A stretch of DNA of 64,000 nt from assembly GCA_927439865.1 (NCBI GenBank), contig CAKMKD010000021.1, positions 2,522 through 66,521 on the forward strand. The letters run 5' to 3'. The stretch's first letter is position 1, and each line of letters opens with the position of its first letter. Below the pieces are notes generated by a model. That model worked only from the letters and a program-made list of their open reading frames with translations. It did not search any database and was not told where the DNA came from. Made by a program: the position numbers and the translations under genes. The DNA comes from an uncultured Coriobacteriia bacterium. GTDB taxonomy: Bacteria > Actinomycetota > Coriobacteriia > Anaerosomatales > Anaerosomataceae. Shown in pieces: positions 12,767-38,969 of the stretch.

Positions 12767-12824
12767 GCACGGCGCGCAAGCATTGCTATACTTCCGTTCG
12801 CTGCCCCTCGGGGCATCAGGGAGT

Positions 12825-12910
12825 GTCGAAGTGGCGGAACGGCAGACGCGCTAGGTTGAGGGCCTAGTGAGGGCAACCTCGTGAGGGTTCAAATCCCTCC
12901 TTCGACACCA
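12825..12910 (+). tRNA. tRNA-Leu (anticodon GAG)
   Basis: Hand-folded. Acceptor stem GTCGAAG/CTTCGAC, anticodon stem CTAGG/CCTAG with loop TTGAGGG, long variable arm, T arm GAGGG-TTCAAAT-CCCTC, encoded CCA. Confidence 0.85.
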
Positions 12911-12920
12911 TGAGTTGCAC

Positions 12921-12953
12921 GAGAGCCCCCTCGGCGAGGGGGCTCTCTTTATT
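12921..12953 (+). terminator. Rho-independent terminator after tRNA-Leu
   Basis: Perfect 12-bp stem GAGAGCCCCCTC / GAGGGGGCTCTC followed by TTTATT. It overlaps the stop of the convergent gene at 12949. Confidence 0.75.
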
Positions 12954-14991
12954 CTGCCGACGTCGGCTGGGTGATGCTCGCCGCGACGATCGCGATGTCG
13001 TCGGTGTGGCTGGAGTGCGCGAACGCCACAACTTCAGCCATCAGCGTGTCAACGATGAGCTGCGGGTCCGCTTCGCGCATAGATTCGAGGATCTCTCCGA
13101 TACGTTCCTCGCCGAAGAATTCCTTGTCATGACGCGCGTCCGGCAGTCCGTCGCTGAAAATGACGATCGACTCGCCCGGCCGAAGGGCGATCCGGAACTG
13201 GTCGAAGGTTGCGTCGGTCCAGATGCCGAGTGGACGATTTCGGAGCGCATCGTGTCGGATGCATCCGGAGGGCGTGCACACAAAGGGATCAGGGTGTCCG
13301 GCGCTGCACAGATCCACGATTCCCGTTGCAGTGTCGACGATCGCGTATGTTGCGGTGGCAAATACGCCCTCGGGCAACAATCGCTCCAGTGCCTCGTTAG
13401 CCGCGGCCAGAACGTCTTTCGGGGTCGCGCCCGGGCTGCTGAAAGCATGAAGCGTGGTTCGAACGATCGAACTCGCAGCCGCTGCGGAGATACCCTTGCC
13501 CGCGACATCCCCGAGGACAAGCGCCACGCGGTGGTCGTCCAGCTCGAATGCGTCGTAGAAGTCCCCGCCGATCCTGGCCAGCTCGTCTGCAGACCGATAT
13601 GCATGGCCGAGGGCGACACCTGGAAGCGATTCGGGGAACGTGAGCATGGCGCCCTGCAGGGTATCTGCAATCTCCCGCTGCGATGCGTACAAGCGCGCAT
13701 TCTCGAACGCGAGCGCGAGGGAGATTGCGAGCCGCGCAGCGAACTCCCTGTCTGTGTCGCGGAACTGGCGCTCGGGAGTCCGCAGGTGGAAGGTGAGTAT
13801 TCCGAACACCGTGCCAGCGCTCGATAAGGGTACCGTGAGCAGCCCGGTCACCTTTAGTCGGCGGGCCAGTTCCGGGTCCACCCGCGGGTCCGTGAGCGTG
13901 TCGAGTACGAGCAGTGGGGCGCGGGTTTCAGCGGCAGCGAAGAGATGGCGGCCGGAAGACTCATCAAGCAGCGTGCCCTTGAAGTCATCAGGAAGCATGT
14001 ACGTGTGTGCCACTCTCCATGCGGTGCCTTCCCGAACGCTGATCGCGGCCGAGTCAGCATGCACCGCCTGAGCCGCGCCGAGCAGCGCGCGCTCTAGGAT
14101 CTCGTCCAGGTCGAGCGTTGAGTTCACATTCGCATCGATGACAGCAAGGGTTTGTGCCAGTTCTGCCTCACGTCTGATAATCGCCTCACGTTCGATTAGC
14201 GTCTTGTTGGCGTCCGCGAGCTCCCTGAACAGGACAGCGTTCGGCTCGGTCAGGGCAGTCTCGATGATCGCCTTGTAGAGCAGGTACGTCGCAACGATTC
14301 GGAAGTAGTGTCCAAGCAAGTTGAGGAATCCGTATGGGTCTGAGTAGAGAGTGAATATCGCCTCGGAGAGTACTGTGACACCGATTGACCATGACAGCAG
14401 CCGCAGCACGTTCGGCGCGAAACGGTGCCCGTTCCTGCGAAGGAGGACGAGTGCGATGATGAACAGCGCGCCGATAACTATCTCGGCGCCGACCTTGAAC
14501 GACGTCAGGCCATTCTTGTTCAGGCACTCCGGAAAGATGCGCCACCAGAATACGCTCGCGAGGATCAGTACGACCGCCGCGCTCCATCCGAAAAGAGAGA
14601 CGTTCGGGTTCAGCTTCTTGCCGAACAGGAGCGGAGCGACGACTAGTGAGACTGCCTGAAGTGCCCGGGCCGCGACCCAGAGTTGCGTTGCCGCGTCAGG
14701 GGGGCCACCCGAGATGACTCCCATGCCCTGGTAGCTCAAGAGGTGCGCAGCGTCAGTGGCACAGAGCGCAAGTGCCGCGATCCCGATGAAGATTAGGTAC
14801 TCGTTCTGCATGACCCTGCGGCTGTTCCACACAACCATGAACACACACGCCGAGACCGTGATAGCGAACAGCTCTGCGATGCTGTGAAACAGTAGGTAGC
14901 TCTCAAGTCGCGCCAGATAGAGCAGCGCGAAGACGGCTGCTGCGGCAAGACCGGCTATGACCATGTCGCGCAGTGGGCGTTGCGTTTCCAT
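12949..14991 (-). CDS. Membrane sensor with GAF domain and PP2C (SpoIIE/RsbU-type) serine phosphatase domain
   Basis: About 230-aa polytopic N-terminus, a central GAF-like region, and a C-terminal PPM domain with GDVAGKGISAAAASS and FSDGLPDA motifs. Confidence 0.8.
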   Translation of the reverse strand: METQRPLRDMVIAGLAAAAVFALLYLARLESYLLFHSIAELFAITVSACVFMVVWNSRRVMQNEYLIFIGIAALALCATDAAHLLSYQGMGVISGGPPDAATQLWVAARALQAVSLVVAPLLFGKKLNPNVSLFGWSAAVVLILASVFWWRIFPECLNKNGLTSFKVGAEIVIGALFIIALVLLRRNGHRFAPNVLRLLSWSIGVTVLSEAIFTLYSDPYGFLNLLGHYFRIVATYLLYKAIIETALTEPNAVLFRELADANKTLIEREAIIRREAELAQTLAVIDANVNSTLDLDEILERALLGAAQAVHADSAAISVREGTAWRVAHTYMLPDDFKGTLLDESSGRHLFAAAETRAPLLVLDTLTDPRVDPELARRLKVTGLLTVPLSSAGTVFGILTFHLRTPERQFRDTDREFAARLAISLALAFENARLYASQREIADTLQGAMLTFPESLPGVALGHAYRSADELARIGGDFYDAFELDDHRVALVLGDVAGKGISAAAASSIVRTTLHAFSSPGATPKDVLAAANEALERLLPEGVFATATYAIVDTATGIVDLCSAGHPDPFVCTPSGCIRHDALRNRPLGIWTDATFDQFRIALRPGESIVIFSDGLPDARHDKEFFGEERIGEILESMREADPQLIVDTLMAEVVAFAHSSHTDDIAIVAASITQPTSAE

Positions 14992-19457: not shown

Positions 19458-20684
19458 TCAGTCGCTCAGAAGGTCGAGCGCCGCATCAGCGGCCTGCGTG
19501 ACTGTCCCAACGATGGCCGGATCGTCGCCCCATGGCGAGAGTGTCACCACCCGCACCGTGTCATCCAGGCGGGCTGACTCCACGGCATGCTTCAGGTCCA
19601 GGGCACTGGCAAGTGTCAGGTGAGGCAGCGTCGCCGGCGCGATGATGACGTGCTGGCAGCCGAGAGCCGCCAGGTGGCGAACCGTCTCAGTCACATCCGG
19701 TGTCTGCCATTCGATCCAGCTCGCACGAATAGTGGATTCGGCAAAGCCGCGTTCAACGAGCATCATCCGGACGCGCTGGGTGAAGTAGTTCTCGACCTCG
19801 GTCCAGCCGCATTCGAGGGACGACCAGGCAGTCGGCTGGCCTTCTCCCACGAGCACAACGCCAACGCTGCCGAGCTCTTGTCCATGTGCGGTTTCGATGA
19901 TGCGGTCGACGAGACGTGCTGCGAGGTCGTCCGATCGCCAGATGCTTGGCGCCACGGACAGACGGACGCCCGTCTCATCAGCAACCGACTGGGCGGTGCG
20001 CCGCGCGTCCATGGTGGCGAACGAGTCGTCGGGCCCAAGCGTTACCACCACAACCTCACGATGACCTGCGGCGGCAAGGTCGCGAACGGCACTACCGAGC
20101 GACGGTGACCCGTCGCACCACGCGACAGTGGTCTGACCGACCCTGCTCGACAGCACTTCGGCTACCTGATCGGCGACGCCGGTCACCGTGGCCCGGGCGG
20201 GGTTGAACCCTCCAAGTGCGCGATATCTGGTCTTCTCACTCAGGAAGACGAACGGCATCGCGCTGGTTGGCAGCTGAAGTGCCCCGCTTGAAACGAGTCG
20301 CTCAATGACACGCGCCGTCGAAGCGATTCGGTACCGGGGGGCCTCGGCGCACGACAGGATCACGAGCGCAGGCTTGTCTCGGGGTTGCGACCCCTGCATG
20401 TGAGCCGCCGCCTGGCGAGGCGAATCGACCACGGCGTGCGGGAGGGCGGCCGCCGCGCACCAGTAGCCACCGGCCAGCCCGGCGGCAACGAAGAAGATGG
20501 CAAGGCCGATCGCCTCGGCATCGCCCGTGAGCACGATCGCCGAGAATGATCGAATCATCAGGTAGGCGCCAGCCGCCACACCGATGAGTGGAATGAGCTG
20601 GCTCCGGCGGGGAGCTACAAGGGTGCCCACGAGGCACGCACCGATCGTGATGCTTCCAGCGAGCAGGCCAAGCCAGTGATGCAC
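19458..20684 (-). CDS. Membrane-anchored class II chelatase-fold (ferrochelatase/CbiX-like) protein
   Basis: Three to four N-terminal TM helices, then two alpha/beta repeats resembling chelatase halves (VVVVTLGPDD..., VVLVGEGQP..., CQHVIIAPATLPHL). I moved the start to the GTG preceded by GGAGGGA. The ORF-track start at 20798 would translate through the intergenic palindrome. Confidence 0.45.
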   Translation of the reverse strand: MHHWLGLLAGSITIGACLVGTLVAPRRSQLIPLIGVAAGAYLMIRSFSAIVLTGDAEAIGLAIFFVAAGLAGGYWCAAAALPHAVVDSPRQAAAHMQGSQPRDKPALVILSCAEAPRYRIASTARVIERLVSSGALQLPTSAMPFVFLSEKTRYRALGGFNPARATVTGVADQVAEVLSSRVGQTTVAWCDGSPSLGSAVRDLAAAGHREVVVVTLGPDDSFATMDARRTAQSVADETGVRLSVAPSIWRSDDLAARLVDRIIETAHGQELGSVGVVLVGEGQPTAWSSLECGWTEVENYFTQRVRMMLVERGFAESTIRASWIEWQTPDVTETVRHLAALGCQHVIIAPATLPHLTLASALDLKHAVESARLDDTVRVVTLSPWGDDPAIVGTVTQAADAALDLLSD

Positions 20685-20749
20685 GCGACGTCCCTCCACA
20701 CGGTGTCGGCTCGACAATAGCGGGAGATGTGGTGGCACGGCAAATGCTG

Positions 20750-20780
20750 TTGCAGTTACTATACCCCAGGGGGTATAGTA
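20750..20780 (+). promoter_or_regulatory. Sigma-70-like promoter (TTGCAG-18-TATAGT) containing a 24-bp palindromic operator
   Basis: TACTATACCCC-AG-GGGGTATAGTA at 20757-20780 has perfect 11-bp arms. It fills the spacer and the -10 box of the trxA promoter, in the divergent intergenic region shared with the chelatase-like gene. Confidence 0.65.
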
Positions 20781-20816
20781 ACCCCCGATACAAACCACAA
20801 GGAAAGGGAGCGCACC

Positions 20817-21137
20817 ATGAGCGCATCTGTGAAGGACATTCAGGAGTCTGAGTTCGGGTCAGAGGTTCTAGGCGCCACGGTTCCGGTTATCGTCGACTTC
20901 TGGGCTCCCTGGTGCGGACCATGCAAGATGGTCGGGCCGGAGATCGAGAAGCTCGCTGCCCGCACCAATGACGTCAAGTTCGTAAAGGTGAACGTCGATG
21001 AAAGCCGTGAGGTTGCAATCCAGTACGGAGTCATGAGCATCCCGACCATCGCCAAGTTCGAGCATGGTACTCTGGTTTCGCAGGTGGTTGGCGCTCGAAG
21101 CGCTGACGCGCTTGCACGGGAATTCGGCTTGGCGTAG
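20817..21137 (+). CDS. trxA: Thioredoxin
   Basis: WAPWCGPCK active site, about 106 aa. ATG is preceded by GGAAAGGGAG. Confidence 0.95.
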   Translation: MSASVKDIQESEFGSEVLGATVPVIVDFWAPWCGPCKMVGPEIEKLAARTNDVKFVKVNVDESREVAIQYGVMSIPTIAKFEHGTLVSQVVGARSADALAREFGLA

Positions 21138-21541: not shown

Positions 21542-21844
21542 CTACTGCACGCAGCTGGAGTACTTCAAGAAGACCTTGATCGCTTCGTCAATGAGTTCGT
21601 CGCGCGACTTCTCTCCGTCTTCCACAAGGCACGTCTTCATCGAGTAGCCGATGATGTGCAGCCCAACCTGGTTCAGCGCCGACTTGGCTGCCATGATCTG
21701 CGTGAGAACGGCCTCACAGTCCTTGCCAGAGTCGATCATGGTCTGGAGACCGCGAATCTGGCCTTCGAGCCGCTTCAGTCTGTTGATGATGCGTCGACGC
21801 TCTTCCTCGGTGCCGATAGACTCGCTCTGCTGTGGCATGCTCAA
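21542..21844 (-). CDS. CsoR/RcnR/FrmR-family (DUF156) metal- or thiol-sensing transcriptional repressor, C-x-C type
   Basis: The RLKRLEGQIRGLQTMI helix is diagnostic of the family. Cys43 and Cys72 are present, but the position 4 residues before Cys72, which is the Cu(I) His ligand in CsoR, is Ser68. Confidence 0.85.
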   Translation of the reverse strand: MSMPQQSESIGTEEERRRIINRLKRLEGQIRGLQTMIDSGKDCEAVLTQIMAAKSALNQVGLHIIGYSMKTCLVEDGEKSRDELIDEAIKVFLKYSSCVQ

Positions 21845-21900: not shown

Positions 21901-21917
21901 ATACCCCCTGGGGGTAT
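21901..21917. promoter_or_regulatory. Palindromic operator ATACCCCC-T-GGGGGTAT in the repressor/CDF divergent region
   Basis: Perfect 8-1-8 inverted repeat, 57 nt upstream of the repressor start codon and 25 nt upstream of the CDF start. Confidence 0.65.
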
Positions 21918-21941: not shown

Positions 21942-22883
21942 ATGGGGTACACGAAAGCCAGGCAGGGTGCCGATGGGTCGCGTGCCCGCAGCATCCAGAA
22001 GGTCCTGTGGATTATCCTCGGACTCAATGTCCTGGTGGCAGCGGCGAAACTGGTGTACGGACTCATTACCAGATCAGTCGGCATGACCGCCGACGGGTTC
22101 CACTCTATGTTCGACGGTACCTCGAATGTCATCGGGCTCCTCGGGATGGGTATCGCAGCGCGCCCGGCTGACAGCGATCATCCGTACGGGCACTCAAAGT
22201 ACGAGACGTTCGCGTCGGTCGTCATCGGCGCGATGCTCTTGCTGGCCGCGTGGCGTGTCGGCACGTCGGCGTTCGACCGACTCATGAGCCCCGGAGAGCC
22301 GGCTCGCGTTGATGCGCTGTCGTTCGCCATCATGTTCGGGACGCTCTGCATCAATATCCTCGTCACCCGCTACGAGCGCCGGGTGGGGGAGCAGTTGGGG
22401 AGCGAGATTCTCATCGCCGACGCCAGCCATACCGGCAGCGACGTTCTCGTCAGCATCGGCGTCATCATCGGGCTTGTTGCGGTGAAGCTCGGCTTCCCGA
22501 TTGCCGACCCTATCGTTGGTTTGGTCGTCGCGGGATTCATCGTTGTTGCTGCGCTGCGTGTCTTCCGGGCCGCGCAAGCCACGCTCTCCGATACCGCTCG
22601 CATCGCGCCGGACATGATCCGGGATGTTGCGCTCTCGGTCCCGGGCGTGCTCGGGTGCCATGAGGTCCGCACGCGAGGTCCTGTCGCCGAGGTCTACGTC
22701 GACCTGCACATTCAGGTCGATCCATCGGTGAGCGTGTCCGAGGGGCATGCTATCGCTGAGCGAGTTGAGAAGACCATCTGCGAAGCCCTGCATCAGGTGA
22801 CGGACGTCATCGCTCACCTCGAGCCACTTGACGAGTACCAGAAGCGCAAGACGGCACAGCACGACAGTGATGGGATGGCCTAG
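21942..22883 (+). CDS. Cation diffusion facilitator (CDF) family divalent-metal efflux transporter
   Basis: Six-TM N-terminal domain with HSMFDG and HTGSDVL metal-site motifs, plus a cytoplasmic C-terminal domain. Confidence 0.85.
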   Translation: MGYTKARQGADGSRARSIQKVLWIILGLNVLVAAAKLVYGLITRSVGMTADGFHSMFDGTSNVIGLLGMGIAARPADSDHPYGHSKYETFASVVIGAMLLLAAWRVGTSAFDRLMSPGEPARVDALSFAIMFGTLCINILVTRYERRVGEQLGSEILIADASHTGSDVLVSIGVIIGLVAVKLGFPIADPIVGLVVAGFIVVAALRVFRAAQATLSDTARIAPDMIRDVALSVPGVLGCHEVRTRGPVAEVYVDLHIQVDPSVSVSEGHAIAERVEKTICEALHQVTDVIAHLEPLDEYQKRKTAQHDSDGMA

Positions 22884-22886
22884 CGT

Positions 22887-23867
22887 ATGGAGCAGACCGC
22901 CGCCGATCGCGACCGGCGCGACCGGCTCACCGGTTACGGCCTCGCTGTGCTTGCCGCGGCCTGTTGGGCAACGGGTGGCCTGGCCGCGAAGTGGCTCTTC
23001 TCGCCACTCGATGCGACGACCAGCGGGTGGCCGTTTCCGCCGCTGGGTATCGCCATCGACCCTGTCATGCTTTCGGCTACTCGGGCGTTACTGGCCTTCG
23101 GGATGCTGTTCACATACATGGTAATCGCGCGCCGAGACGCTCTGAGGGTCAAACTGCGCGAGCTACCCTTCCTGATCTTCTTCGGAGTGGTCGGATTGGC
23201 ACTCGTGCACTTCACGTACTTCAAGGCCATATCTCTTACGAGCGTCGCAACCGCGATTCTGCTCGAGTACTTGGCGCCGGTGCTTGTTCTGCTTGTTTCT
23301 GTCGTCGTACTCAGGGACCGGTTCACGTGGTCGCTACCGATGTCGGTTGTGATGTCCGTGACAGGGTGTGCGCTCGTGGTGGGGGCGATTGGCGGAACGG
23401 GGTTGCGCGTCTCGCCCGAGGGACTCGCCTGGGGTCTGGGCTCAGCGGTCTTCTTCGCAGGCTACACGATCATGGGCCGCTGGGCCGCTCACAGGTTCTC
23501 CTCATGGACGCTCCTCACCTATGGCCTCGGTGCTGCCACGCTGTTCTGGTTCGTCGTCCTCGGCGGTCCCGCGCCTGTGTTCGCGACGCTTTCGAACCCG
23601 AAGACCCTTGCCGCGGTCACGTTCATCGCTTTCACAAGCACGGTCGTTCCTTTCGGTGCGTTTCTGAAGGCGCTGAGGCACATTCGGGCCACTGAGGCAT
23701 CGGTAACCGCCACCCTCGAGCCAGTGCTCGCTGCCGTGCTCGCGTGGCTGCTCTTCGGCGAGTCGCTGGGAACAGCTCAGATACTTGGTGGACTGCTTGT
23801 TATCGGCGCCATCATGGTTTCGCAGAGACCGGGTTCGACCGTCTCGGAGCTGCCTCCTGCGGTGTGA
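22887..23867 (+). CDS. EamA/DMT-family transporter
   Basis: Ten predicted TM helices arranged as two EamA-like repeats. Confidence 0.7.
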   Translation: MEQTAADRDRRDRLTGYGLAVLAAACWATGGLAAKWLFSPLDATTSGWPFPPLGIAIDPVMLSATRALLAFGMLFTYMVIARRDALRVKLRELPFLIFFGVVGLALVHFTYFKAISLTSVATAILLEYLAPVLVLLVSVVVLRDRFTWSLPMSVVMSVTGCALVVGAIGGTGLRVSPEGLAWGLGSAVFFAGYTIMGRWAAHRFSSWTLLTYGLGAATLFWFVVLGGPAPVFATLSNPKTLAAVTFIAFTSTVVPFGAFLKALRHIRATEASVTATLEPVLAAVLAWLLFGESLGTAQILGGLLVIGAIMVSQRPGSTVSELPPAV

Positions 23868-23971: not shown

Positions 23972-25366
23972 ATGGAACTCACTCACAGACCGGAACTCAG
24001 GCAGAAGGTCACACTGTCACCCCAGGTCTACCAGGGGCTTACTATACTCGCCATGCCTGTAGTCGAACTGCAGACGCTGATAGACACCGAGCTTCTCGAG
24101 AACCCGGTGTTGGAGCTTGAGGAAGACGAGCTTGAGCCAGCCGAGGAATCTGACGACCGGGTAGACGACGCCGAGGAAGAGCGCGCCTGGGACGATTGGC
24201 TCGATCAGTACGACGACCTTGAGAACCTCGATGCCGGCAGTCCGCGTGATCCGAACCAGGAGGAGATCAACTCCGATGAGTTCGTTGGGGGCGTGCGGAC
24301 GTTCGATGATTACCTGATCGACCAGCTCGGCATGCTCGACATTCCCGAGGACGTTGCGCGCGCGGCCCGAGCTATCGTCGGATCACTTGATGACGACGGC
24401 CTTTTCGTGGGCACGTGTGCCGAGATAGCCGCCATAACCGGTGTCACAGCTGCTGTTGTAGAGCAGGCGCTTTCCGTTGTGCAGCAGCTGGATCCTCCAG
24501 GCGTGGGGGCACGCACTGTTCGCGAGGCTCTGAAGATTCAGGCTGCGTATCTCGGCATCGATACGCCGCTGGTGATCGCGCTGATAGAGCGTCACCTCGA
24601 CGCTGTGGCCGCCAGCCATACACGCAAGGTCTCGCGGGCCGAACATGTGACGGAAGACGAGGTGCGCGACGCGGTTGAGCTGCTCAAGCAACTCAACCCC
24701 CGTCCTGCCGGCTCGTTCTCGCCCGGCCAGGCACCGTCGTACGTCATCCCTGATCTCACGCTTCGACGCTTCGGCGAGGACTGGCTCATCATTCCGAACA
24801 ATGAGGCTGTGCCGACCCTGAAAGTCAGCCCCCGTTATCGTCAGATGCTCCGCTCTCAGTCCAAGGTCGACGATGAGACACGCAAATACCTGAAAGACAA
24901 GATCCGCTCCGCTGAGTCGTTCATGCGCAACGTCGACAGGCGCCGCGACACGGTCACCCGAATCGCCGAGATCATCTTGGAGACGCAGAAGGACTTCTTC
25001 GAGGACGGAAAGGGCGACATGCGGCCGCTACGCCTTGAGGATGTGTCCTCGGAGATCGGCGTGCATCTGAGCACCGTCAGCCGTGGGGTGACCGGCAAGT
25101 ACATGGCCACGCCGTACGGCCTGTTCGAGCTGAAGCACTTCTTCTCGGGAGGCTACAGGAGCTCGAGCGGGATGGATGTTGCGGCCACAACCGTTAAGCG
25201 GCGAATTCGAGATCTGCTGGAGGCGGAAGATCAAAGCCGACCGCTCTCGGATCAGAAGCTCGCCGAGGCTCTGTCTGCGGACGGCGTCGACGTGGCTCGC
25301 CGCACGGTGGCGAAGTACCGGGAGGAGCTCGGGATCGAGCCCTCGTGGGCGAGGAAGCGTCGATGA
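23972..25366 (+). CDS. rpoN: RNA polymerase sigma-54 factor
   Basis: N-terminal region I (LRQKVTLSPQVYQGLTILAMPVVELQ), an acidic region II, and a C-terminal HTH plus RpoN box (ARRTVAKYRE). Confidence 0.9.
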   Translation: MELTHRPELRQKVTLSPQVYQGLTILAMPVVELQTLIDTELLENPVLELEEDELEPAEESDDRVDDAEEERAWDDWLDQYDDLENLDAGSPRDPNQEEINSDEFVGGVRTFDDYLIDQLGMLDIPEDVARAARAIVGSLDDDGLFVGTCAEIAAITGVTAAVVEQALSVVQQLDPPGVGARTVREALKIQAAYLGIDTPLVIALIERHLDAVAASHTRKVSRAEHVTEDEVRDAVELLKQLNPRPAGSFSPGQAPSYVIPDLTLRRFGEDWLIIPNNEAVPTLKVSPRYRQMLRSQSKVDDETRKYLKDKIRSAESFMRNVDRRRDTVTRIAEIILETQKDFFEDGKGDMRPLRLEDVSSEIGVHLSTVSRGVTGKYMATPYGLFELKHFFSGGYRSSSGMDVAATTVKRRIRDLLEAEDQSRPLSDQKLAEALSADGVDVARRTVAKYREELGIEPSWARKRR

Positions 25367-26907
25367 CGCCTGAGCCAACGCCAACAGGTCGTCGTATCGA
25401 CGAGAGTCGGGGCGATGATGGACTCATCTCTGGTCGCAGGAGCGAGGTGCGTGACGTAGCGCTCATCGTCATCTTGCTTGCGTCGATCACCATCCTGCAT
25501 CTGTTCACGTCCGCAGCGCCTCAGGCGATGTCGATGCATCTGCTCTACCGCAAGCTGTATTACCTGCCCATCATGTTTGCGGGGTTTGTTTTCGGCCGAC
25601 GAGGCGGATTCATTACTGCGGTCGCGGCGAGCCTGCTGTTCGCCCTGCACGCTACAGTTTCGCTCGGCGGACTCCTCGGCGAGCACATCGACAACCTGTA
25701 CGAAATCGTCATGTATGTGGCGATTGGCGTTATGTTCGGGTGGCTCCGTGACCTCTCCGAAGTCAAGACGCAGGATCTCAGACAACTCAGCAGACAGCTT
25801 GAGGATGCGTACAGAAAGCTCGAGGAACGCGCGATTCAGCTCGTCAACATCCAGGACTACACGCAATCGATCCTGAGGTCGATCACGTCGGGCGTCGTTA
25901 CCGTCGGGCCGGACGGGTCGGTCGCTACTGCGAACCCTGCGGCCGAGAGGATGCTCGGTGTCCGTGAGGTCGACATCGTGCCTCGTCGCATCGGTACGCT
26001 CTTTGCCGACGACTCTGGGCTCGACGACGAGGTCTGGAAGGTGCTCAAAGGGCGGATTCCGAAGTCAGTGAAGGACATGCGACTCGTCACACGAGCCGGT
26101 CGGGTGCTCCACGTGCAGGCGTCGACATCCCGGATGCGTGATGTCGATGGCCGAATCCTCGGCGCAGTTGTCACGGTGGAAGACGTATCCGAGGTCAAGG
26201 CTCTTACCGACCAGCTCATCCGAGCCGACCGGCTGGCGGCCATGGGGGAGCTGACCGCAGGCGTAGCACACGAGGTGCGCAACCCTCTTGGTATCATCAG
26301 AGCATCGGTACAGCTCGTCGAAGAGTCCGGCGCCGATCGTGAACGGGTGCTCGAAGCTACGAGTGTGATCAAGCAGGAAATCGACCGCCTGGATCGGGTG
26401 ATCAAGGCGCTTCTCGATTTTGGTCGACCATCAAAGCCGTACCTTCGACTCACGGATCTCGGCGAAGTCATCGAAGACGTCGTGCTATTCACGAGGCGCT
26501 TCGCAGGGCAGTCGAAGGTGACCATCTCGGCGAAGGATATCGGCTCGCTGCCGAGCATAATGGCGGATCCCGACCAGATGAAGCAGGTGTTCGTCAACCT
26601 CATATCGAACGCCGTGCAGGCTATGGACAGCTCAGGCGGTACCATCTCGGTGAGTGGCAGAAGTGACGAAGGATTCCTCTCGATCGTTGTCTCGGATGAC
26701 GGCCCCGGAATCGCGGAGTCCGAGCTCAAGAAGGTGTTCGATCCGTTCTTCTCAACACGGGACGCAGGAACAGGTCTGGGACTCACGATCGTTCATAGGA
26801 TTCTTGACGAGCACGATGGGCACATAGAAGTCGCGAGTGTTCCGGGGCAGGGGACGACCTTCACAGTGTCGCTCCCCGTGTTCCAGACAGGCGAGGAGGA
26901 TCGATGA
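25363..26907 (+). CDS. Membrane sensor histidine kinase (PAS-HisKA-HATPase, NtrB-like)
   Basis: N-terminal TM bundle, PAS region, H-box HEVRNPL, and N/G boxes (NLISNAVQA, GTGLGL). ATGA overlap with rpoN. Confidence 0.85.
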   Translation: MTPEPTPTGRRIDESRGDDGLISGRRSEVRDVALIVILLASITILHLFTSAAPQAMSMHLLYRKLYYLPIMFAGFVFGRRGGFITAVAASLLFALHATVSLGGLLGEHIDNLYEIVMYVAIGVMFGWLRDLSEVKTQDLRQLSRQLEDAYRKLEERAIQLVNIQDYTQSILRSITSGVVTVGPDGSVATANPAAERMLGVREVDIVPRRIGTLFADDSGLDDEVWKVLKGRIPKSVKDMRLVTRAGRVLHVQASTSRMRDVDGRILGAVVTVEDVSEVKALTDQLIRADRLAAMGELTAGVAHEVRNPLGIIRASVQLVEESGADRERVLEATSVIKQEIDRLDRVIKALLDFGRPSKPYLRLTDLGEVIEDVVLFTRRFAGQSKVTISAKDIGSLPSIMADPDQMKQVFVNLISNAVQAMDSSGGTISVSGRSDEGFLSIVVSDDGPGIAESELKKVFDPFFSTRDAGTGLGLTIVHRILDEHDGHIEVASVPGQGTTFTVSLPVFQTGEEDR

Positions 26908-28253
26908 AGCGGCGCGTACTGATCGCCGACGACGAGAAGAACATGCGGTGGGTGCTCGGCCAGGCGCTGAGCGCCGAGGGCTACGAGATCATCGAGGCAG
27001 CCGACGGCAAGGAAGTCCTTGCGGCGATCGCCGATCAGCCCCCGGAACTCATGGTGCTCGATCACAAGATGCCGGCACCGGATGGCATGGAGGTGCTCCG
27101 ACGCCTCAGGGCGAAAGGGCACACGTTCCCGATCATCATGTTGACCGCTCACGGCAACGTAGCGAGCGCGGTTGAAGCGATGAAGGCGGGCGCGAGCGAG
27201 TACCTCACCAAACCGTTTGACCTCGAAGAGCTGAAGCTCAGCATCGAAAAGGCACTCAAGGTCGGCGATCTTGCCGCGGAAGTGACCCGGTTGCGCGAGG
27301 AGCTCGACCGAGATTACGACGTCTCCGGAATCGTCGCAGCAGATCCGACGATGCTTGCCATTCTCGAGACGACACACAAGGTGGCACCTACGAGTGCGAC
27401 GGTCATGATCTACGGCGAGTCAGGCACGGGCAAAGAGCTCGTCGCACGGGCGCTGCACACGCTCTCGAATCGCGCGAGCAAGCCGTTTGTCTCAGTCAGC
27501 GCTGGCGCACTGCCCGAAACACTTCTCGAAAGTGAGCTATTCGGCTACGAGAAGGGTGCGTTCACCGGGGCGATGCAGGCGAAACCAGGCCGCTTCGAGC
27601 TGGCGAACGGAGGCACGCTCTTCCTCGATGAAATCGGAGATATCACCCCCGGTGTGCAGGTGAAGCTGCTCCGCGTGATGCAGGAGCGGACCTTTGAACG
27701 CCTTGGCGGAACGCGTCCAATCGAGGTCGACGTGCGCGTGGTGGCTGCAACGAACAAGGATCTACAGCAGCTGATCGCGGATGGTCAGTTCCGGGAGGAC
27801 CTTTACTACCGGCTCAACGTGGTGCCGATCACGCTGCCGCCTCTCAGGCAGCGGCCAAGCGAGATTCCGCTCCTGGTTGCACTCTTCCTTGAGAAGCAGA
27901 AGGCCGGCTCCAAGCACATTTCGTCCGAGGCGATGCAGTTGCTCGTCGAGTATCAATGGCCGGGCAACGTTCGCGAGCTCGAGAACACCATCGAGCGGAT
28001 AGCGATCCTCTCGCGCAACGACGAGATCACTGTGGATGATCTGCCCGCCGAGGTACGCTCGGGCGTGGCGATGTGCTCCCCCGGCGAGCGTTGCTTCGTC
28101 CTGCCCGAGGGTGGGCTCGACCTCGAGGAGGTCGAACTGGAGTTTGTGAAACAGGCACTTGAGCGGACTGGCGGCTCGTCCCCCAAAGCGGCCAAGCTCC
28201 TCGGTCTCACCACGAAGACGATCGAGGCGCGCATGGAAAAATTCGGGCTCTGA
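26904..28253 (+). CDS. Sigma-54-dependent response regulator (REC-AAA+-Fis HTH, NtrC family)
   Basis: REC domain, Walker A GESGTGKE, the sigma-54 contact motif GAFTGA, and a C-terminal HTH (AAKLLGLTTKTI). ATGA overlap with the kinase gene. Confidence 0.9.
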   Translation: MKRRVLIADDEKNMRWVLGQALSAEGYEIIEAADGKEVLAAIADQPPELMVLDHKMPAPDGMEVLRRLRAKGHTFPIIMLTAHGNVASAVEAMKAGASEYLTKPFDLEELKLSIEKALKVGDLAAEVTRLREELDRDYDVSGIVAADPTMLAILETTHKVAPTSATVMIYGESGTGKELVARALHTLSNRASKPFVSVSAGALPETLLESELFGYEKGAFTGAMQAKPGRFELANGGTLFLDEIGDITPGVQVKLLRVMQERTFERLGGTRPIEVDVRVVAATNKDLQQLIADGQFREDLYYRLNVVPITLPPLRQRPSEIPLLVALFLEKQKAGSKHISSEAMQLLVEYQWPGNVRELENTIERIAILSRNDEITVDDLPAEVRSGVAMCSPGERCFVLPEGGLDLEEVELEFVKQALERTGGSSPKAAKLLGLTTKTIEARMEKFGL

Positions 28254-28280: not shown

Positions 28281-28296
28281 TGGCATGCGTATTGCA
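28281..28296 (+). promoter_or_regulatory. Sigma-54 (-24/-12) promoter TGGCAT-GCGTA-TTGCA
   Basis: Matches TGGCAC-N5-TTGCW with correct GG/GC spacing and one core mismatch. It lies 27 nt after the activator stop and about 40 nt before the next ATG. Confidence 0.65.
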
Positions 28297-28336: not shown

Positions 28337-28696
28337 ATGCAGTCTCGAGGCAACCGGACCACCATCGCCACGATTCTCGGCGCGCTCCTGCTGGTCGCGT
28401 TCGTCGGCGGGCTCGTTATGGTTGTGAATGCCGAGGACGGTTTTGCCAACTGCACCGGTGCGGCGGAATTCGGCTGGATGGCACCATTGTTCGCTGCTGC
28501 GATAATCGGTGGCCTCGCCTGGGTACTACTTCGCCAAGACCCGCGATCACCTGATGATGCACAGGCTGCTCCGTTTGAGGAGTGCCCCGAATGCGGCCGC
28601 TCCGTTCTCGGGCAGTGGCGCATGTGTCCTTACTGCGGCGAGATGCTCGATCCTCGTTACTCTATCCGCGCCGCCGCATCGCGAGGCGAGCAGTAG
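28337..28696 (+). CDS. Two-TM membrane protein with C-terminal zinc-ribbon (CPECG...CPYCG)
   Basis: Two hydrophobic helices followed by a CxxC-N12-CxxC motif. RBS AAGGTGAAGG. Confidence 0.55.
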   Translation: MQSRGNRTTIATILGALLLVAFVGGLVMVVNAEDGFANCTGAAEFGWMAPLFAAAIIGGLAWVLLRQDPRSPDDAQAAPFEECPECGRSVLGQWRMCPYCGEMLDPRYSIRAAASRGEQ

Positions 28697-28721: not shown

Positions 28722-28946
28722 ATGGCTGAGCCCCAGACCACACGCTTCACTACGACCGGCATGCACTGCCATTCATGCTCGATGCTCATTCAGATGACGG
28801 TGAGCGATCTTGACGGAGTCGACTCGGTCGAGGTCGATAACGCTGCCGGTCTGACTGAGGTCACCTACGATCCGGACAAGGTCACGCCCGAGGGGATCAT
28901 CACAGAGATCGTGGCTGTGGGTTATGGCGCCGAGGTTGCAGGGTAG
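28722..28946 (+). CDS. Heavy-metal-associated (HMA, CopZ-like) domain protein with variant GMHCHSC site
   Basis: About 74 aa with a ferredoxin-like HMA pattern (TTGMHCHSCSMLIQMTVSDLDGV...). ATG follows GAGGAGG. The ORF-track start at 28509 lies inside the previous gene. Confidence 0.8.
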   Translation: MAEPQTTRFTTTGMHCHSCSMLIQMTVSDLDGVDSVEVDNAAGLTEVTYDPDKVTPEGIITEIVAVGYGAEVAG

Positions 28947-28962
28947 CGAGGACTAGACGCAA

Positions 28963-28982
28963 ATACCCCCAGGGGGTATAGT
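28963..28982 (+). promoter_or_regulatory. Palindromic operator ATACCCCC-A-GGGGGTAT overlapping a TATAGT -10 box upstream of ccdA
   Basis: Perfect 8-1-8 inverted repeat at 28963-28979. TATAGT at 28977-28982, with TAGACG 17 nt upstream as a possible -35. Confidence 0.6.
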
Positions 28983-29051: not shown

Positions 29052-29798
29052 ATGCCGGATGCAACAGTTGGATTCTTTGGCGCGTTTCTTGGCGGGCTCT
29101 TGTCGTTCCTTTCCCCGTGCGTGCTGCCTCTCATTCCCGGGTACCTCTCGTTCATGACCGGCCTGAGTGCTGGTGACCTGAAGAGCGGTGAGTCCAGGGT
29201 TAGCCGAATACTCGTGCCGAGCGCGCTGTTCACCTTGGGCTTCTCAGTCGTCTTCGTGCTCCTTGGTGCTGCTGCCGGCTTTGCGAGCGATGCGCTTCGG
29301 CCGTTCATGGCTACCTATCAGAGTGCCATCAGCGTCGCTGCTGGAATCCTTATCGTGCTCGTCGGCATCTTCATGCTTGGGATCATCAAGGTTCCCTGGC
29401 TCTACGGTGAAGCCCGGTTTGACCTGGCGAAGTCCAGGCGATTCGGCAGTGGAGCCGCGTTCGTGATGGGACTGGCATTCGGGTTCGGTTGGACGCCGTG
29501 TGTGGGTCCGATTCTTGCCGTGATACTGGGGCTTGCCGCGCAGACTGGCGACGTCACACGGGCAGCGCTGATGCTCGGAGCCTACTCGCTCGGCCTCGCC
29601 CTTCCATTCCTGCTGACAGCGGCCTTCTTCGGCAAGCTGACGCGTACCCTCGGGTGGTTCAACCGGCATTCTGTCGCCCTGTCACGAGCTGCCGGCGTCA
29701 TGCTGATCGTGATGGGCGTGCTGATCGCATCAGGTCAGCTTGGCCGACTCTCAGCGCTCATGATCAAAGCCATGCCGTTCCTCTCCAAGCTTGGGTGA
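29052..29798 (+). CDS. ccdA: Cytochrome c biogenesis / thiol-disulfide electron transporter CcdA (DsbD family)
   Basis: LSPCVLPLIPGYL and WTPCVGPIL, the two conserved Cys-containing TM motifs. Confidence 0.85.
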   Translation: MPDATVGFFGAFLGGLLSFLSPCVLPLIPGYLSFMTGLSAGDLKSGESRVSRILVPSALFTLGFSVVFVLLGAAAGFASDALRPFMATYQSAISVAAGILIVLVGIFMLGIIKVPWLYGEARFDLAKSRRFGSGAAFVMGLAFGFGWTPCVGPILAVILGLAAQTGDVTRAALMLGAYSLGLALPFLLTAAFFGKLTRTLGWFNRHSVALSRAAGVMLIVMGVLIASGQLGRLSALMIKAMPFLSKLG

Positions 29799-29864: not shown

Positions 29865-32800
29865 GTGACAATGGCGGGCCCCTGGCCGATCAAGCGGAGT
29901 CTTGCGAACAGGTACACGCTGCTTGTAGCGGTAGCTGTGGCTTTGACAACCCTGATTCTGGCAAGCGCCCTCGCACGCGGCGTCTATTCGATGGCATCCC
30001 GTGAGGAGACGGCACGCCAACGAGCCCAGAGCGACCTCGTCGTTCGTGACATCTCGTCCCGGCTGCTCGCATCCTCTCGCGTGCTGCGAACGCTGTCCGA
30101 TAGGGAGGCGATCCTTGGCACGGATGAGCGGGCCGCGGGCAAGGCTCTCGCGAGTGCCTATGTGGCCAATGCAGAGTATCTCCAGGGTGTCGCGGTGCTC
30201 GATGCGGACGGCGCTCCCATCGTTGCGTACCCTTCGGACAGCCCGATGCCCCCCGTCGCGACCGTTCGTGCTGCGGATTTCACCGAAGGGGTCGCGTACC
30301 TTTGGCTCGATGCCACCGATGACTCACAGGGTGTGCTCTGGGTCGCGGTGCCAACGCGCGGTACAGGCGGGGATGACAGGCTTCTCGTCGGCGTTGCGCG
30401 GACCGGGTTCATCGATGAAGCGCTGAAACAGGTCACGTTCTCCGAGATGCGCCCGACGGCAGTCGTTGCAGATGTCGCAGGTCGGAGTGTGTTTACGGCC
30501 GGCGACCCGCAGGCATACCTGGGTTCCACTATCAACTACGACCCATCAGCCGATGACCCCAATCTGGGCTCGGTTTCTATCGAGTCGGAAAGCGGGCAAC
30601 GGTTCACGGGGGTGTACGCGTCAATGTCGGGACTCAGGGGCCTCGACTGGCGCGTGATTATTGCCGAGAACGAGAGTGTGGTAGCGACTGAGACCTGGAA
30701 TGCGCTGCGCCCGGCGGTGATCGCCTGGTCAATATCGTCGTTCGTGGCGATGGCACTCGCGCTCATATCTGCTTCGTTTCTTGCGCGCCCGCTTCGGATG
30801 CTCGACCAGCGTGCGCGCGCAGCGGCTTCCGGGGCCATCCTCGAGCCTTTGCCCGTGAACCGGAACGATGAGATAGGCAGATTGATTGAGTCGTTCAACT
30901 CCGTGGCGCTCAGGCTCAATGGGATGCACGACATCAGCCAGTTGCTGGCAAGCGCGTCTGATGTGGAAGAGGTCCTCGACAGGATACTTGTCTCGCTCTC
31001 GCACATCCTTGGTGCACGAGACGTGGAGATTCTCCTGCTGGAAGACGAGGGCACGACGCTTCACCTTGTGCGGGCATCAGGGGCGCTGGTTCACGTGAGG
31101 GGTGCGAGAATCTCGGTCGATGCATCGACATGGCTCGGGGGCTCGATCACTACTCGCGCGGTCGAGCGTTTCTCGGGCGCGGTCGCGCTTGACCCTTTGA
31201 TGCACCTGCATGAGTCTCACTCGGACACGGCGTGCGCTATCGCGGTCCCGCTCGCAAAGGGCCATTCGGTGCTCGGCGTTGTGGTGATCGTCTGTGATGA
31301 GAGACAGCCATTCTCTGAGGCGGAAGTTGAAGTCGCGCGCTCGTTCGCCGCGCAGGCCGCGCTTGCTCTGGACAATGCTCGGCTCTTCGAAGACGAGCGC
31401 CGGTCGCGACGCGACGCCGAAGCGCTGCGACAAGTGGCCGAATCGATGAGCAGTCGCGCTTCGCTGGCCGGGTCGCTCAATGACATCGGCGCCATCGAGG
31501 CCGATCTTCTCGGTGCCGACAAGTCGTGGGTGTTCCTTGAGGAACCAGGCGATGGCAGCGGTGAGACTGAAGAAGTGTCCGCCCTATGCTTCTCGTTGTG
31601 GAGACGCATCAAGGATGAACGCGGGTTCTCGGAGAACGCCCTGCCTGTTGTACTCTCCGCGGATGATCACGATCAAGGGGTGCGAGCCCTGATGGGTGTG
31701 CTTGGGGCTGAATCGGTCGTGATCACGCCGGTTTCGGTCCATGAAGCGCTTACTGGTCTATTGGTCGTGGGCTGGGTCGACCGAACGTATGCTTTGGATC
31801 AGCGTGGCATCGGGCTGGGTTCGGCTATTGGTCAGCAGATAGCTCTCGCTTTGGAGAATGCTGCGCTGTTTGACGAGGCACGAACACGGGCCGATAACCT
31901 CGAGACGATCTTCCGCATATCCCAGGCGGTGAGCTCATCGCTCCAGAGCAAAGTCGTGCTCAACAGGGTACTGGACGTGGTGCAGAAGATCCTCTCGGCA
32001 GACGCAGTCATGCTGATGACGCTCGACCCGAGTCGCGGTCTCATGGTGGTGCCGATGGCGCGTGGCATCCTGAATCCGGAGATGCTGAAGATGGAGTTCC
32101 GCGCCGGCGAGGACATCCCTGGTGAGGTGTTTGAGACGAAGGAGCCGATAGCCGTACCCGACCTGAACGAGTCCGACTCATTCCTCTCGCGCGTTGCGGT
32201 GGGACAGAATCTCAGCTCAGCCGTCTTCGTTCCGCTTCTGGCCCGAGGCAGGTCGATCGGAGTCCTTGCGGTGCTGGCGCGCATGAAGGGCGCCTTCACG
32301 GCAGATGACACCGAGCTCTTGCGAACGTTCGCGACTCAGGCTGCTCTTGCAATCGACACGGCCGACCTGTTCAGCCGAGAGCATCACGTGGCAACAGTGC
32401 TCCAGCAGAGCATCCTGCCAACGCGACTCCCCGTGATTCACGGCATCGAGTCGGCGAGCGTGTACGTCCCCGCTAGCAGTGAGGTTGAGATCGGCGGTGA
32501 CTACTACGACCTGTTCCTGGCCCCCGATGGACGTGTCGTGATTGCCATTGGAGACGTGTGCGGCAAGGGGGTGGAGGCCGCGACGAAGACGTCGATGATC
32601 AAGTACTCGATCAGGGGGATGATAGCTGCGGGTGCCATGCCCTCCGCTGTGCTGAGCGAGCTCAATGCGGCGCTGGTTGCTGCGGGAGATCCTGCGGATA
32701 TCGTCACGCTCTGGCTCGGGTTGCTCGATATTGATACAGGGAGGCTTGTCTGGGCGAACGGCGGACATCCACCCGCGATGTTGCTGCAAGCAGATACGAG

Positions 32801-33131
32801 CGAGATACTCCGGCTGAGCACGACGGGGGCACTTCTCGGCGCAGTTCGAGCTGCCGAGTACGCTGAGTCCGAGGTCGTTGTCACGCCACAAGGAACGCTG
32901 CTGCTCTACACTGATGGTGTCACTGAGGCGCGAAATCGCGGTCGGTTCTTTGGCGAAGGACGGGTGCGCCGCGCGCTTCGCCAGGGCGGATCGGCTACAG
33001 CTGTCACCCAACGAATGCTCACCCTGGTTCAACGATTCTCCCACGGCGAGCTCCGCGACGACGCTGCGATTCTTGCGGTGGTGCTCGGCCCGGTGCCCGA
33101 GGGCGACGCCGCGGAGGTTACTGCCGACTGA
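29865..33131 (+). CDS. Large sensor phosphatase: TM-extracytoplasmic (Cache-like)-TM-HAMP-3xGAF-PP2C (SpoIIE/RsbU type)
   Basis: Two TM segments flank a roughly 250-aa loop. HAMP region (NDEIGRLIESFN). Three GAF-like repeats each end in FA.QAALA..NA.LF. C-terminal PPM domain (GGDYYD, GDVCGKG, YTDGVTEA). Confidence 0.8.
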   Translation: MTMAGPWPIKRSLANRYTLLVAVAVALTTLILASALARGVYSMASREETARQRAQSDLVVRDISSRLLASSRVLRTLSDREAILGTDERAAGKALASAYVANAEYLQGVAVLDADGAPIVAYPSDSPMPPVATVRAADFTEGVAYLWLDATDDSQGVLWVAVPTRGTGGDDRLLVGVARTGFIDEALKQVTFSEMRPTAVVADVAGRSVFTAGDPQAYLGSTINYDPSADDPNLGSVSIESESGQRFTGVYASMSGLRGLDWRVIIAENESVVATETWNALRPAVIAWSISSFVAMALALISASFLARPLRMLDQRARAAASGAILEPLPVNRNDEIGRLIESFNSVALRLNGMHDISQLLASASDVEEVLDRILVSLSHILGARDVEILLLEDEGTTLHLVRASGALVHVRGARISVDASTWLGGSITTRAVERFSGAVALDPLMHLHESHSDTACAIAVPLAKGHSVLGVVVIVCDERQPFSEAEVEVARSFAAQAALALDNARLFEDERRSRRDAEALRQVAESMSSRASLAGSLNDIGAIEADLLGADKSWVFLEEPGDGSGETEEVSALCFSLWRRIKDERGFSENALPVVLSADDHDQGVRALMGVLGAESVVITPVSVHEALTGLLVVGWVDRTYALDQRGIGLGSAIGQQIALALENAALFDEARTRADNLETIFRISQAVSSSLQSKVVLNRVLDVVQKILSADAVMLMTLDPSRGLMVVPMARGILNPEMLKMEFRAGEDIPGEVFETKEPIAVPDLNESDSFLSRVAVGQNLSSAVFVPLLARGRSIGVLAVLARMKGAFTADDTELLRTFATQAALAIDTADLFSREHHVATVLQQSILPTRLPVIHGIESASVYVPASSEVEIGGDYYDLFLAPDGRVVIAIGDVCGKGVEAATKTSMIKYSIRGMIAAGAMPSAVLSELNAALVAAGDPADIVTLWLGLLDIDTGRLVWANGGHPPAMLLQADTSEILRLSTTGALLGAVRAAEYAESEVVVTPQGTLLLYTDGVTEARNRGRFFGEGRVRRALRQGGSATAVTQRMLTLVQRFSHGELRDDAAILAVVLGPVPEGDAAEVTAD

Positions 33132-38802: not shown

Positions 38803-38876
38803 TGGAGGCGACGCCCGGATTCGAACCGGGGATAGAGGCTTTGCAGGCCTCTGCCTTACCACTTGGCGACGTCGCC
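38803..38876 (-). tRNA. tRNA-Cys (anticodon GCA)
   Basis: Hand-folded reverse complement GGCGACG...CGTCGCC-T-CCA. Anticodon stem GAGGC/GCCTC with loop CTGCAAA. T loop GGTTCGAATCC. Confidence 0.85.
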
Positions 38877-38969
38877 CTGATGAGGGAGCACGTGCGCTCC
38901 CGACTCAAGAAAAGAAGGCCGGCCCCGAGGGGCTTGATGAGCCTCGGACCAACCTTCCGGGGTGTGCTA

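Follow-up and report, generated by a model that had tools for sequence, protein, structure and literature searches.

The intergenic region upstream of a thioredoxin gene (trxA) in an uncultured Coriobacteriia bacterium harbors a perfect palindrome that is very likely the operator of a CsoR-family (PF02583) repressor, encoded nearby at 21542-21838, and that is built into a sigma-70-type trxA promoter. The palindrome was studied in a 64-kb stretch of one genome (contig CAKMKD010000021.1, hereafter the window), to which all window counts are limited, and its motif recurs there at three further promoters, including that of the regulator gene. The motif, its statistics, its conservation and its promoter position, together with the family and sensory-residue pattern of the regulator, are direct observations.

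A palindrome embedded in the trxA promoter

Within the site, TACTATACCCC and GGGGTATAGTA are perfect reverse complements around a central AG at 20757-20780, in exact agreement with the preliminary description of this DNA, and the symmetry runs one base pair further on each side, as the outermost pair T20756/A20781 lengthens the arms from 11 to 12 bp (window stretch containing the site: ...ctgTTGCAGTTACTATACCCCAGGGGGTATAGTAAccccc...). The palindrome is flanked by a chelatase-fold membrane gene on the minus strand and by trxA on the plus strand, which bears out the divergent intergenic placement noted earlier; the end coordinate then given for the region, 20817, is the first base of trxA, where its ATG lies. 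The site has doubled repeats in the arrangement TAC-TA-TAC...GTA-TA-GTA. Its perfect 12-bp arms are specific to this genome, the orthologue alignment retaining ATACCC..GGGTATA alone, and the conserved core, ATACCCCAGGGGGTAT, spans 20761-20776 in the N6 form.

The preliminary description had also placed a -35 and a -10 element at the palindrome. The -10 element, TATAGT, stands, with a TATA that is invariant in the orthologues, and the -35 element, TTGCAG, lies where it had been located but is weak (Table 1). A spacer of 18 bp separates the two elements, and TATAGT takes its first bases from the right arm, GGGGTAT. The motif overlaps both the spacer and the -10 element and is conserved with the promoter elements, in keeping with the repressor-occlusion layout that had been proposed.

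Recurrence of the motif in the window and across related genomes

The pattern ATACCCC-N0-6-GGGGTAT has three exact matches in the window (20761, 21901, and 28963), against none in 100 dinucleotide-preserving shuffles, and a fourth copy, ATACCAGGGGGGGTAT at 58707, carries two mismatches; the three recurrences listed in the preliminary description (21901, 28963, and 58707) were all recovered. With the looser core ATACC-N6/7-GGTAT, these four sites are the sole matches in the window, all of them within its non-coding fraction (~11%), and the motif is absent from the coding DNA. Operator 2 lies on the minus strand inside TTGCTG-18-TATGGT, the regulator's own promoter, 24 bp 5' of the start codon of a cation diffusion facilitator (CDF) gene. 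Operator 3 falls within the promoter-like TAGACG-17-TATAGT (28954-28982) and operator 4a within the promoter-like TTGACT-17-TATGCT (58697-58725), both called by the promoter scan. At the trxA, regulator, ccdA, and FAD/Fe-S/CCG oxidoreductase genes, the -10 hexamer has its first bases in the right half-site. Both the sequence and the location of the sites are those of type-2 CsoR-family operators: ATACCCC-N2/3-GGGGTAT at sites 1-3 contains TAC-N8/9-GTA with C/G tracts over 16-19 bp, and both the spacer and the -10 element are overlapped at four promoters, including the regulator's own. The likeness to CsoR-family operators pointed out in the preliminary description is borne out by the published consensuses and by a PF02583 gene at a distance of 0.8 kb, whose own promoter carries the motif as well.

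The comparison was extended to 16 syntenic loci (L001-L016; ~300 kb, 66-95% identity) from uncultured Coriobacteriia/OPB41-like Actinomycetota, obtained from a scan of species-representative genomes, across which the gene order PHP-chelatase-trxA-DUF302-regulator-CDF-EamA-rpoN-histidine kinase-ntrC-HMA-ccdA-SpoIIE is kept. In these ~300 kb, the exact core ATACC-N6/7-GGTAT is confined to three orthologous promoters, beside the regulator gene (16/16 loci), upstream of every intact trxA (11/11), where the preliminary description had suggested looking for it, and upstream of ccdA (7/14). In an alignment of 12 trxA upstream regions, with a mean column identity of 49%, ATACCC and GGGTATA stand out as the longest invariant runs; apart from them, nothing is invariant except four scattered bases further upstream and the TG of the start codon. 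Most orthologues have TTGACA three bases 5' of the motif and a TATAnT formed by the right arm. Similarly, in 17 aligned regulator promoters, ATACCCC...GGGGTAT and the last T of TATnnT are invariant, with TTGC upstream. In both footprints the central 2-3 bases vary freely and the TAC/GTA arms are fixed, the pattern expected of a protein-contact dyad and not of a stem under maintenance.

This pattern bears on the alternative that some other factor binds the palindrome, or that it forms a DNA or RNA hairpin (terminator, attenuator, or repeat) unrelated to the CsoR-family gene, an explanation of very low probability. The transcript would form a stable 12-bp stem, modestly better than shuffles (z = -2.25), and operator 3 lies just past the stop codon of an HMA gene; nevertheless, no T-run follows the palindrome, no co-directional gene lies upstream at sites 1, 2, and 4, and the free centre between fixed arms does not fit the maintenance of a stem. 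A different binding factor is likewise disfavored, as the motif accompanies the regulator gene at all 16 loci and fits the published operators of its family. An RNA element or terminator was rejected on the lack of an Rfam match, the lack of a called terminator, and the modest hairpin energy, and MerR-type activation from an over-long spacer was rejected because the spacers measure 16-18 bp and neither the surveyed open reading frames (ORFs) of the window nor the 16 syntenic loci include a MerR gene.

The promoter of the oxidoreductase gene was followed in 59 metagenomic loci encoding relatives, in 37 of which the gene start could be anchored and 150 bp upstream were taken. Exact ATACC-N6-GGTAT cores number 48 in these 5.5 kb, versus one in the other 188 kb. 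At least one core is found in 33 of the 37 regions and two exact tandem cores in 15; in most of the remaining loci, the second site carries mismatches. Typically, TTGAC precedes the first site, which extends into the -10 element, and the second lies ~25-35 bp downstream. Given the cores in 33/37 upstream regions, the oxidoreductase gene is a conserved regulon member with a two-operator promoter, unlike trxA, ccdA, and the regulator gene, which have a single operator each.

The spacing within the operators is locus-specific: it is always N7 at the regulator/CDF site and always N6 at trxA, and at ccdA the window, L001, and L002 have N7 and the five other loci possessing the site have N6. Since the binding of the Thermus regulator TTHA1953 is spacing-sensitive, its affinity dropping 10-15-fold on a one-base change (PMC10318464), the spacing may, by analogy, set a hierarchy of derepression.

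The target genes themselves are not equally constant. The preliminary description saw no reason for a housekeeping thioredoxin gene to carry such a site unless it belonged to a stress regulon; of this, the word "housekeeping" has become doubtful, because trxA is missing at this position from four syntenic genomes (L004, L007, L013, and L016) and truncated in a fifth, so that it looks like an accessory, inducible copy. The truncated gene is a 5'-truncated remnant (L010, 10890-11200) with neither promoter nor operator, and in L012 (10382-11196) the DUF302 gene that follows trxA is present in two tandem copies. None of the four loci without trxA has the motif beside the chelatase-fold gene, and that divergent gene was accordingly rejected as the primary target of operator 1.

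The regulator and its sensory residues

The candidate repressor belongs to the CsoR/RcnR family, as shown by its PF02583 domain (89 bits versus a cut-off of 22.8), a Cys at position X, and the RLXR motif plus Gln, R20-L-K-R23 and Gln47 aligning with the RLKR and Gln of Geobacillus CsoR; the roles of these elements in DNA binding were defined in S. lividans CsoR (PMC3902906). Its PDB matches are CsoR, InrS, CstR, and FrmR (E 1e-12 to 1e-5), and the best of them, 4m1p (E = 9.5e-13), is informative at the family level only. Aligned to the solved structures, Cys41 occupies position X, Ser66 position Y, and Cys70 position Z, giving an x-C-x-C pattern; the placement within the family is based on this sensory-residue pattern and on the nearest relatives. 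Position Y is a His in Cu(I)-CsoR, InrS, and FrmR, and an Asn in firmicute CstR.

Homologues with 78-95% identity come from uncultured Coriobacteriia/Anaerosomatales-type Actinomycetota. Column conservation was scored over 120 orthologues, none of which has lost Cys41, Cys70, or the C-terminal Cys96; His61 is kept in 118, position Y is Ser in 114 and Ala in six, and position 65 alternates between His and Tyr. The N-terminus is variable, with no conserved His; the regulator itself has Pro2, where orthologues mostly have Asp, Ser, Asn, or Ala. Among the syntenic orthologues, that of L016 (JANYKZ010000073.1, 9899-10258) diverges most, with 66% identity, and lacks His61 and Cys96; its locus has no trxA, CDF, or ccdA gene and keeps the autoregulatory operator and EamA.

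Set against the known classes, the protein has the residues of a CstR-type regulator (X and Z both Cys, and His at neither W nor Y) without the corresponding neighborhood, as no SQR, CstB/persulfide dioxygenase, CstA/rhodanese, or TauE gene was found in the window or the 16 syntenic loci. The Ni/Co-sensing RcnR/InrS/DmeR type does not fit, with no conserved N-terminal His and a Ser at Y. A FrmR-like (P-C-H-x) identity with Pro2 chemistry was rejected, as Pro2 is not conserved and positions Y and Z hold Ser and Cys, respectively. The x-C-x-C pattern is shared by the nearest non-orthologous relatives (40-51% identity; Acidimicrobiia, Armatimonadota, and others), some of which adjoin a Lactamase_B+rhodanese fusion (persulfide-dioxygenase-like), a pyridine-nucleotide-disulfide oxidoreductase, or a DsbA-like gene, with ATACCC...GGGTAT motifs at the loci of the first two kinds. 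Distant x-C-x-C relatives with two to three ATACCC-N-GGGTAT sites occur at L038 (8011-9953), L022 (850-2672), and L025 (9911-11475), in Acidimicrobiales, Miltoncostaea, and an unclassified Actinomycetota genome; this operator type is thus shared far beyond the Coriobacteriia clade.

As Ser takes the place of the Y-position His, the regulator falls outside the canonical Cu(I) CsoR type (x-C-H-C), and its signal, judged from these residues, is probably not copper. A canonical copper-sensing operator, with trxA in a Cu(I) stress regulon, is correspondingly very unlikely, even though the operator is nearly identical to the type-2 consensus of Streptomyces Cu-CsoR (PMC3902906), a CopZ-like HMA gene ends 17 bp 5' of operator 3, and the best NCBIfam match of the regulator is RicR, at 52 bits versus a cut-off of 175. 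Position Y holds Ser or Ala, never the ligand His, in all 120 orthologues, the copA/copZ neighborhood of Cu(I)-CsoR does not materialize, with no CopA P-type ATPase among the scanned ORFs of the window, and the HMA gene is apparently driven by its own conserved sigma-54 promoter. CDFs, moreover, are not known to export Cu(I).

Proposed mechanism and signal

Binding, repression, and the inducer are proposed here from sequence, conservation, and analogy. The unmodified tetramer would bind the TAC-N8/9-GTA dyad and block RNA polymerase, and modification of the sensory site would release the repressor, allowing the transcription of trxA-DUF302. The same design would operate at the regulator's promoter, providing autoregulation beside the CDF-EamA pair, and at the promoters of ccdA and of the FAD/Fe-S/CCG oxidoreductase. 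The signal would be the modification of an intersubunit thiol pair, Cys41/Cys70', by reactive sulfur species, another thiol oxidant, or an electrophile, and the induced thioredoxin would repair the damage and help to reset the sensor.

If the operator is read correctly, the chances are about even that the signal is such a thiol switch, responding to persulfide or disulfide stress as in CstR, ScCsoR, and TTHA1953. The x-C-x-C pattern and the relatives speak for it, as does a thiol/disulfide theme common to TrxA, to CcdA, through which electrons from thioredoxin cross the membrane, and to the HdrD-like CCG enzyme. The lineage is represented in culture by strict anaerobes, one of its two isolates being able to reduce sulfur and thiosulfate to sulfide (PMC9686372), which makes exposure to polysulfide without oxygen plausible. 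The specificity of the dithiol CsoR proteins for their inducers is poorly understood, and no H2O2- or disulfide-specific member has been characterized (PMC11672702).

Several observations weigh against this scheme. The consensus promoter scan made no call at the trxA promoter in the window, because TTGCAG, which matches the consensus at only three of six positions, is too weak for the rule of the scan, and the promoter assignment is therefore based on orthologue conservation. Neither a second CsoR-family gene nor another trx gene turned up in the window, and a paralogue outside it could be the true binder. No SQR, persulfide dioxygenase, rhodanese, or TauE gene, the classical CstR targets, was found by the scan of the window; sulfide/persulfide detoxification genes were likewise not found in the 16 syntenic loci, appearing only beside distant relatives. 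Lastly, the gene divergent from the regulator encodes an HD-HD-type CDF most similar to Zn exporters, and the conserved His61 and Cys96 play no part in the known thiol-switch members and may serve as ligands of a metal.

The last two points underlie the alternative that the same operator and repressor respond to a thiophilic divalent metal (Zn, Co, Cd, or Ni) bound at Cys41/Cys70' and/or at His61 plus Cys96, the regulon being a metal-stress response that combines CDF efflux with thiol repair by TrxA and CcdA. Such a signal is the main rival of the thiol switch, conceivable although less probable. It would suit a family whose RcnR/DmeR-type members control metal exporters (PMC8643695), and the two residues, which come in addition to the canonical cysteines, are missing from the L016 regulator, whose locus also lacks CDF, trxA, and ccdA. 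On the other hand, L008 and L011 have no CDF and yet keep the regulator, His61, Cys96, and the operators; the His at W or Y that all characterized Ni/Co and Cu members use is absent, position 65 is not constantly a His, and the closest relatives are x-C-x-C proteins beside genes of the sulfur-detoxification type. Moreover, no CsoR-family Zn sensor is described in the reviews consulted (PMC11672702).

Returning to the thiol switch, a broader and less probable version of it would have a CstR-derived switch run a reductive, oxygen-independent response to reactive sulfur and disulfides in strictly anaerobic OPB41/Anaerosomatales-like Actinomycetota, with TrxA and DUF302, CcdA, the HdrD-like oxidoreductase, and EamA/CDF replacing the SQR, persulfide dioxygenase, and rhodanese of aerobes, and with His61/Cys96 forming a second sensory site, for a metal or for redox, in a dual-input sensor of a kind not yet described.

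Genomic context of the probable operators

Table 1. Coordinates of the operators, promoter elements, and neighboring genes in the window.
Feature	Coordinates	Strand	Evidence or remarks
Operator 1, perfect palindrome TTACTATACCCC-AG-GGGGTATAGTAA, 12-bp arms	20756-20781		Sequence read, pattern search, orthologue alignment
Putative trxA -35, TTGCAG	20750-20755	+	3/6 to consensus; TTGACA in most orthologues
Putative trxA -10, TATAGT	20774-20779	+	5/6 to consensus; first bases are the operator right arm
Operator 2, ATACCCCCTGGGGGTAT, N7 form	21901-21917		Pattern search; kept in 16/16 syntenic loci
Operator 3, ATACCCCCAGGGGGTAT	28963-28979		Pattern search; same position in 7/14 syntenic loci with ccdA
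Operator 4a, ATACCAGGGGGGGTAT	58707-58722		Motif in 33/37 orthologous metagenomic upstream regions
Operator 4b, degenerate, GTACCCGATGGGGGTAG	58732-58748		Second of tandem pair, 10 bp past 4a
Membrane-anchored ferrochelatase/CbiX-fold protein	19458-20684	-	Pfam
trxA, thioredoxin, WCGPC active site	20817-21137	+	Pfam PF00085, E = 8e-29; NCBIfam TIGR01068, 109.9 bits, above cut-off
DUF302-family protein, 123 aa	21170-21541	+	Identified through orthologues
CsoR-family (PF02583) repressor, 98 aa	21542-21838	-	Pfam, 89 bits
CDF exporter, HD-HD site H54/D58, H163/D167	21942-22883	+	Pfam Cation_efflux, ZT_dimer
EamA/DMT-family exporter	22887-23867	+	Pfam EamA; in 16/16 syntenic loci
rpoN, PAS histidine kinase, NtrC-type activator	23972-28253	+	
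Small transmembrane/zinc-ribbon ORF	28337-28696	+	
CopZ-like HMA gene (MHCHSC)	28723-28946	+	17 bp 5' of operator 3
ccdA (DsbD_TM family), transmembrane Cys motifs SPCVLP, WTPCVGP	29052-29798	+	Pfam PF02683, translation
HAMP-GAF-SpoIIE phosphatase	29865-33131	+	67 bp after ccdA
FAD-binding/4Fe-4S/2x CCG oxidoreductase, 1,023 aa, GlcD-GlcF/HdrD-like fusion	58799-61870	+	Pfam

The ferrochelatase/CbiX-fold protein divergent from trxA has an N-terminal hydrophobic, membrane-like region of ~80 aa, is kept in synteny at 16/16 loci, and matches HemH and CfbA far under the family cut-offs. The 123-aa ORF downstream of trxA, with which it is probably co-transcribed, has no significant Pfam or NCBIfam match when taken alone (DUF302, E = 0.29), and its assignment comes from its orthologues, 7/13 of which match DUF302 (best E 2.9e-8), and from their profile, which matches the DUF302 structure PDB 1q9u (4.6e-10). 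In NCBIfam, the CDF comes closest to the Zn efflux family Cdf31 without reaching the cut-off of that family, and the oxidoreductase has partial NCBIfam matches, none above cut-off; operator 4 is flanked by a HAD hydrolase gene and the oxidoreductase gene. Elsewhere, the window is ordinary chromosome, with whiA-gap-pgk-pgm, an Opp-type ABC transporter, UbiD/A/X, a NiFe hydrogenase cluster, and tRNAs.

Between operators 2 and 3, a sigma-54 -24/-12 element, TGGCATGCGTATTGCA (28281-28296, +), is the sole match of its kind in the window and lies just 3' of the rpoN/PAS-kinase/NtrC-type genes and 5' of the zinc-ribbon ORF and the HMA gene, a place that it holds in 14/14 syntenic loci covering it; the whole looks like a self-contained sigma-54 module between two CsoR-type operators. 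The HAMP-GAF-SpoIIE gene downstream of ccdA could be read through from the operator-3 promoter. It is one of two GAF-SpoIIE (PP2C) sensor phosphatases, at 12949-14991 (-) and 29865-33131 (+), one with MASE3 and one with HAMP, and it is followed by a STAS + HATPase_c_2 fusion (33182-33955, +), in which an anti-sigma-antagonist is joined to an anti-sigma-kinase domain; together, these genes suggest a partner-switching network.

Farther away, the NiFe hydrogenase cluster (52816-57013, -) comprises a small subunit, a cytochrome b, a HycI-type maturation protease, and a 524-aa ORF in the large-subunit position, and is consistent with the group 1i Coriobacteriia-type uptake hydrogenase of Anaerosomatales (PMC9686372). 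Four tRNA genes are present, one isolated (12825-12907, +) and three clustered on both strands (38806-39244). Just 5' of the first, a GC-rich dyad, CTGCCCCTCGGGGCAT (12801-12816), gives a weak match with three mismatches in the operator scan and is probably unrelated to the operators.

Comparison with known systems

The findings provide a testable regulon for one uncharacterized branch of the CsoR superfamily, with a defined operator, four target promoters, and an x-C-x-C sensor bearing His61/Cys96, in a subsurface lineage that is widespread and has hardly been cultivated. Should the signal be reactive sulfur, strict anaerobes without a usable persulfide dioxygenase would organize their persulfide/polysulfide defence around thioredoxin and CcdA; if it is a metal, a new solution to metal sensing would have arisen within the CsoR family. 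The operator mechanism is unlikely to surprise specialists, the sensor variant and its regulon, both uncharacterized, being somewhat more interesting than the operator.

Among the characterized systems, the resemblance extends to ScCsoR (SCO0620) of S. coelicolor and the actinobacterial "cluster 3" CstR-like proteins (PMC7533328, PMC8643695), which share the PF02583 domain, Cys at X and Z, and the absence of both a Y-position His and the wedge Asn. ScCsoR is a sulfane-sulfur sensor with the operator ATACCn6GGTAT, and, as in the regulon described here, it combines this ATACC-N6-GGTAT operator with autoregulation and with two sites at some promoters, namely that of pdo in S. coelicolor and that of the oxidoreductase here (PMC7533328). 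The closest non-orthologous relatives of the regulator also have neighbors of the persulfide-dioxygenase/rhodanese type. Conversely, the targets differ, being persulfide dioxygenase, rhodanese, and TauE in the ScCsoR group and trxA-DUF302, ccdA, the oxidoreductase, and CDF/EamA here, and the conserved His61 and C-terminal Cys96 are additional to the residues of ScCsoR. The O2-dependent dioxygenase route would be unworkable in this host, as its lineage is strictly anaerobic.

TTHA1953 of Thermus thermophilus is a thiol-switched member that represses a thioredoxin gene 113-fold and, when reduced, is unresponsive to Cu, Ni, and Co (PMC10318464). It shares with the present regulator the two-Cys family, a thioredoxin-gene target (soxW there), and a doubled TAC/GTA palindrome, as at site 1, whose outer TAC/GTA repeat is nevertheless not conserved in the orthologues. 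Its operator, in contrast, has no C/G tracts and a 4-bp centre, and its thioredoxin is the periplasmic SoxW of the Sox pathway. CstR of Staphylococcus, Enterococcus, and Streptococcus is likewise x-C-x-C, and such clusters are assigned to persulfide/thiol sensors (PMC8643695, PMC11672702). Its operator, ATATACCC-N-GGGGTATAT, with ATATACCCTTATGGGGTATAT at the S. mitis cst operator, is comparable, and it is released by a persulfide-driven crosslink of its two cysteines (PMC8643695). Firmicute CstR differs in having the wedge Asn at Y and in controlling the cst sulfide-oxidation genes, and its identity to the regulator is 30-40%.

Cu(I)-CsoR (S. lividans, Geobacillus, and M. tuberculosis) shares the fold, the RLXR/Gln elements, autoregulation, and a 16-19 bp type-2 operator over promoter elements, and is set apart by the Cu-ligand His and by a nearby copA, neither of which has a counterpart in the window. 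The Streptomyces type-2 consensus is ATATACCCCTNAGGGGTATAT, and two tetramers of S. lividans CsoR occupy each operator (PMC3902906). Operators over the -10 and -35 elements have been described for M. tuberculosis CsoR and others (PMC10318464, PMC3902906).

A similar feedback logic is found in the RsrA-SigR control of trxBA in actinomycetes, in which a thiol sensor induces the thioredoxin that in turn reduces the sensor. RsrA-SigR is, however, an anti-sigma/sigma pair and not a repressor/operator system, and there is no sequence relationship. A literature search returned no report linking a CsoR-family protein to trxA plus ccdA. Taken against these systems, the operator is a textbook type-2 CsoR-family site with an ordinary mechanism, whereas the target set and the set of conserved residues differ from those of every characterized member of the family.

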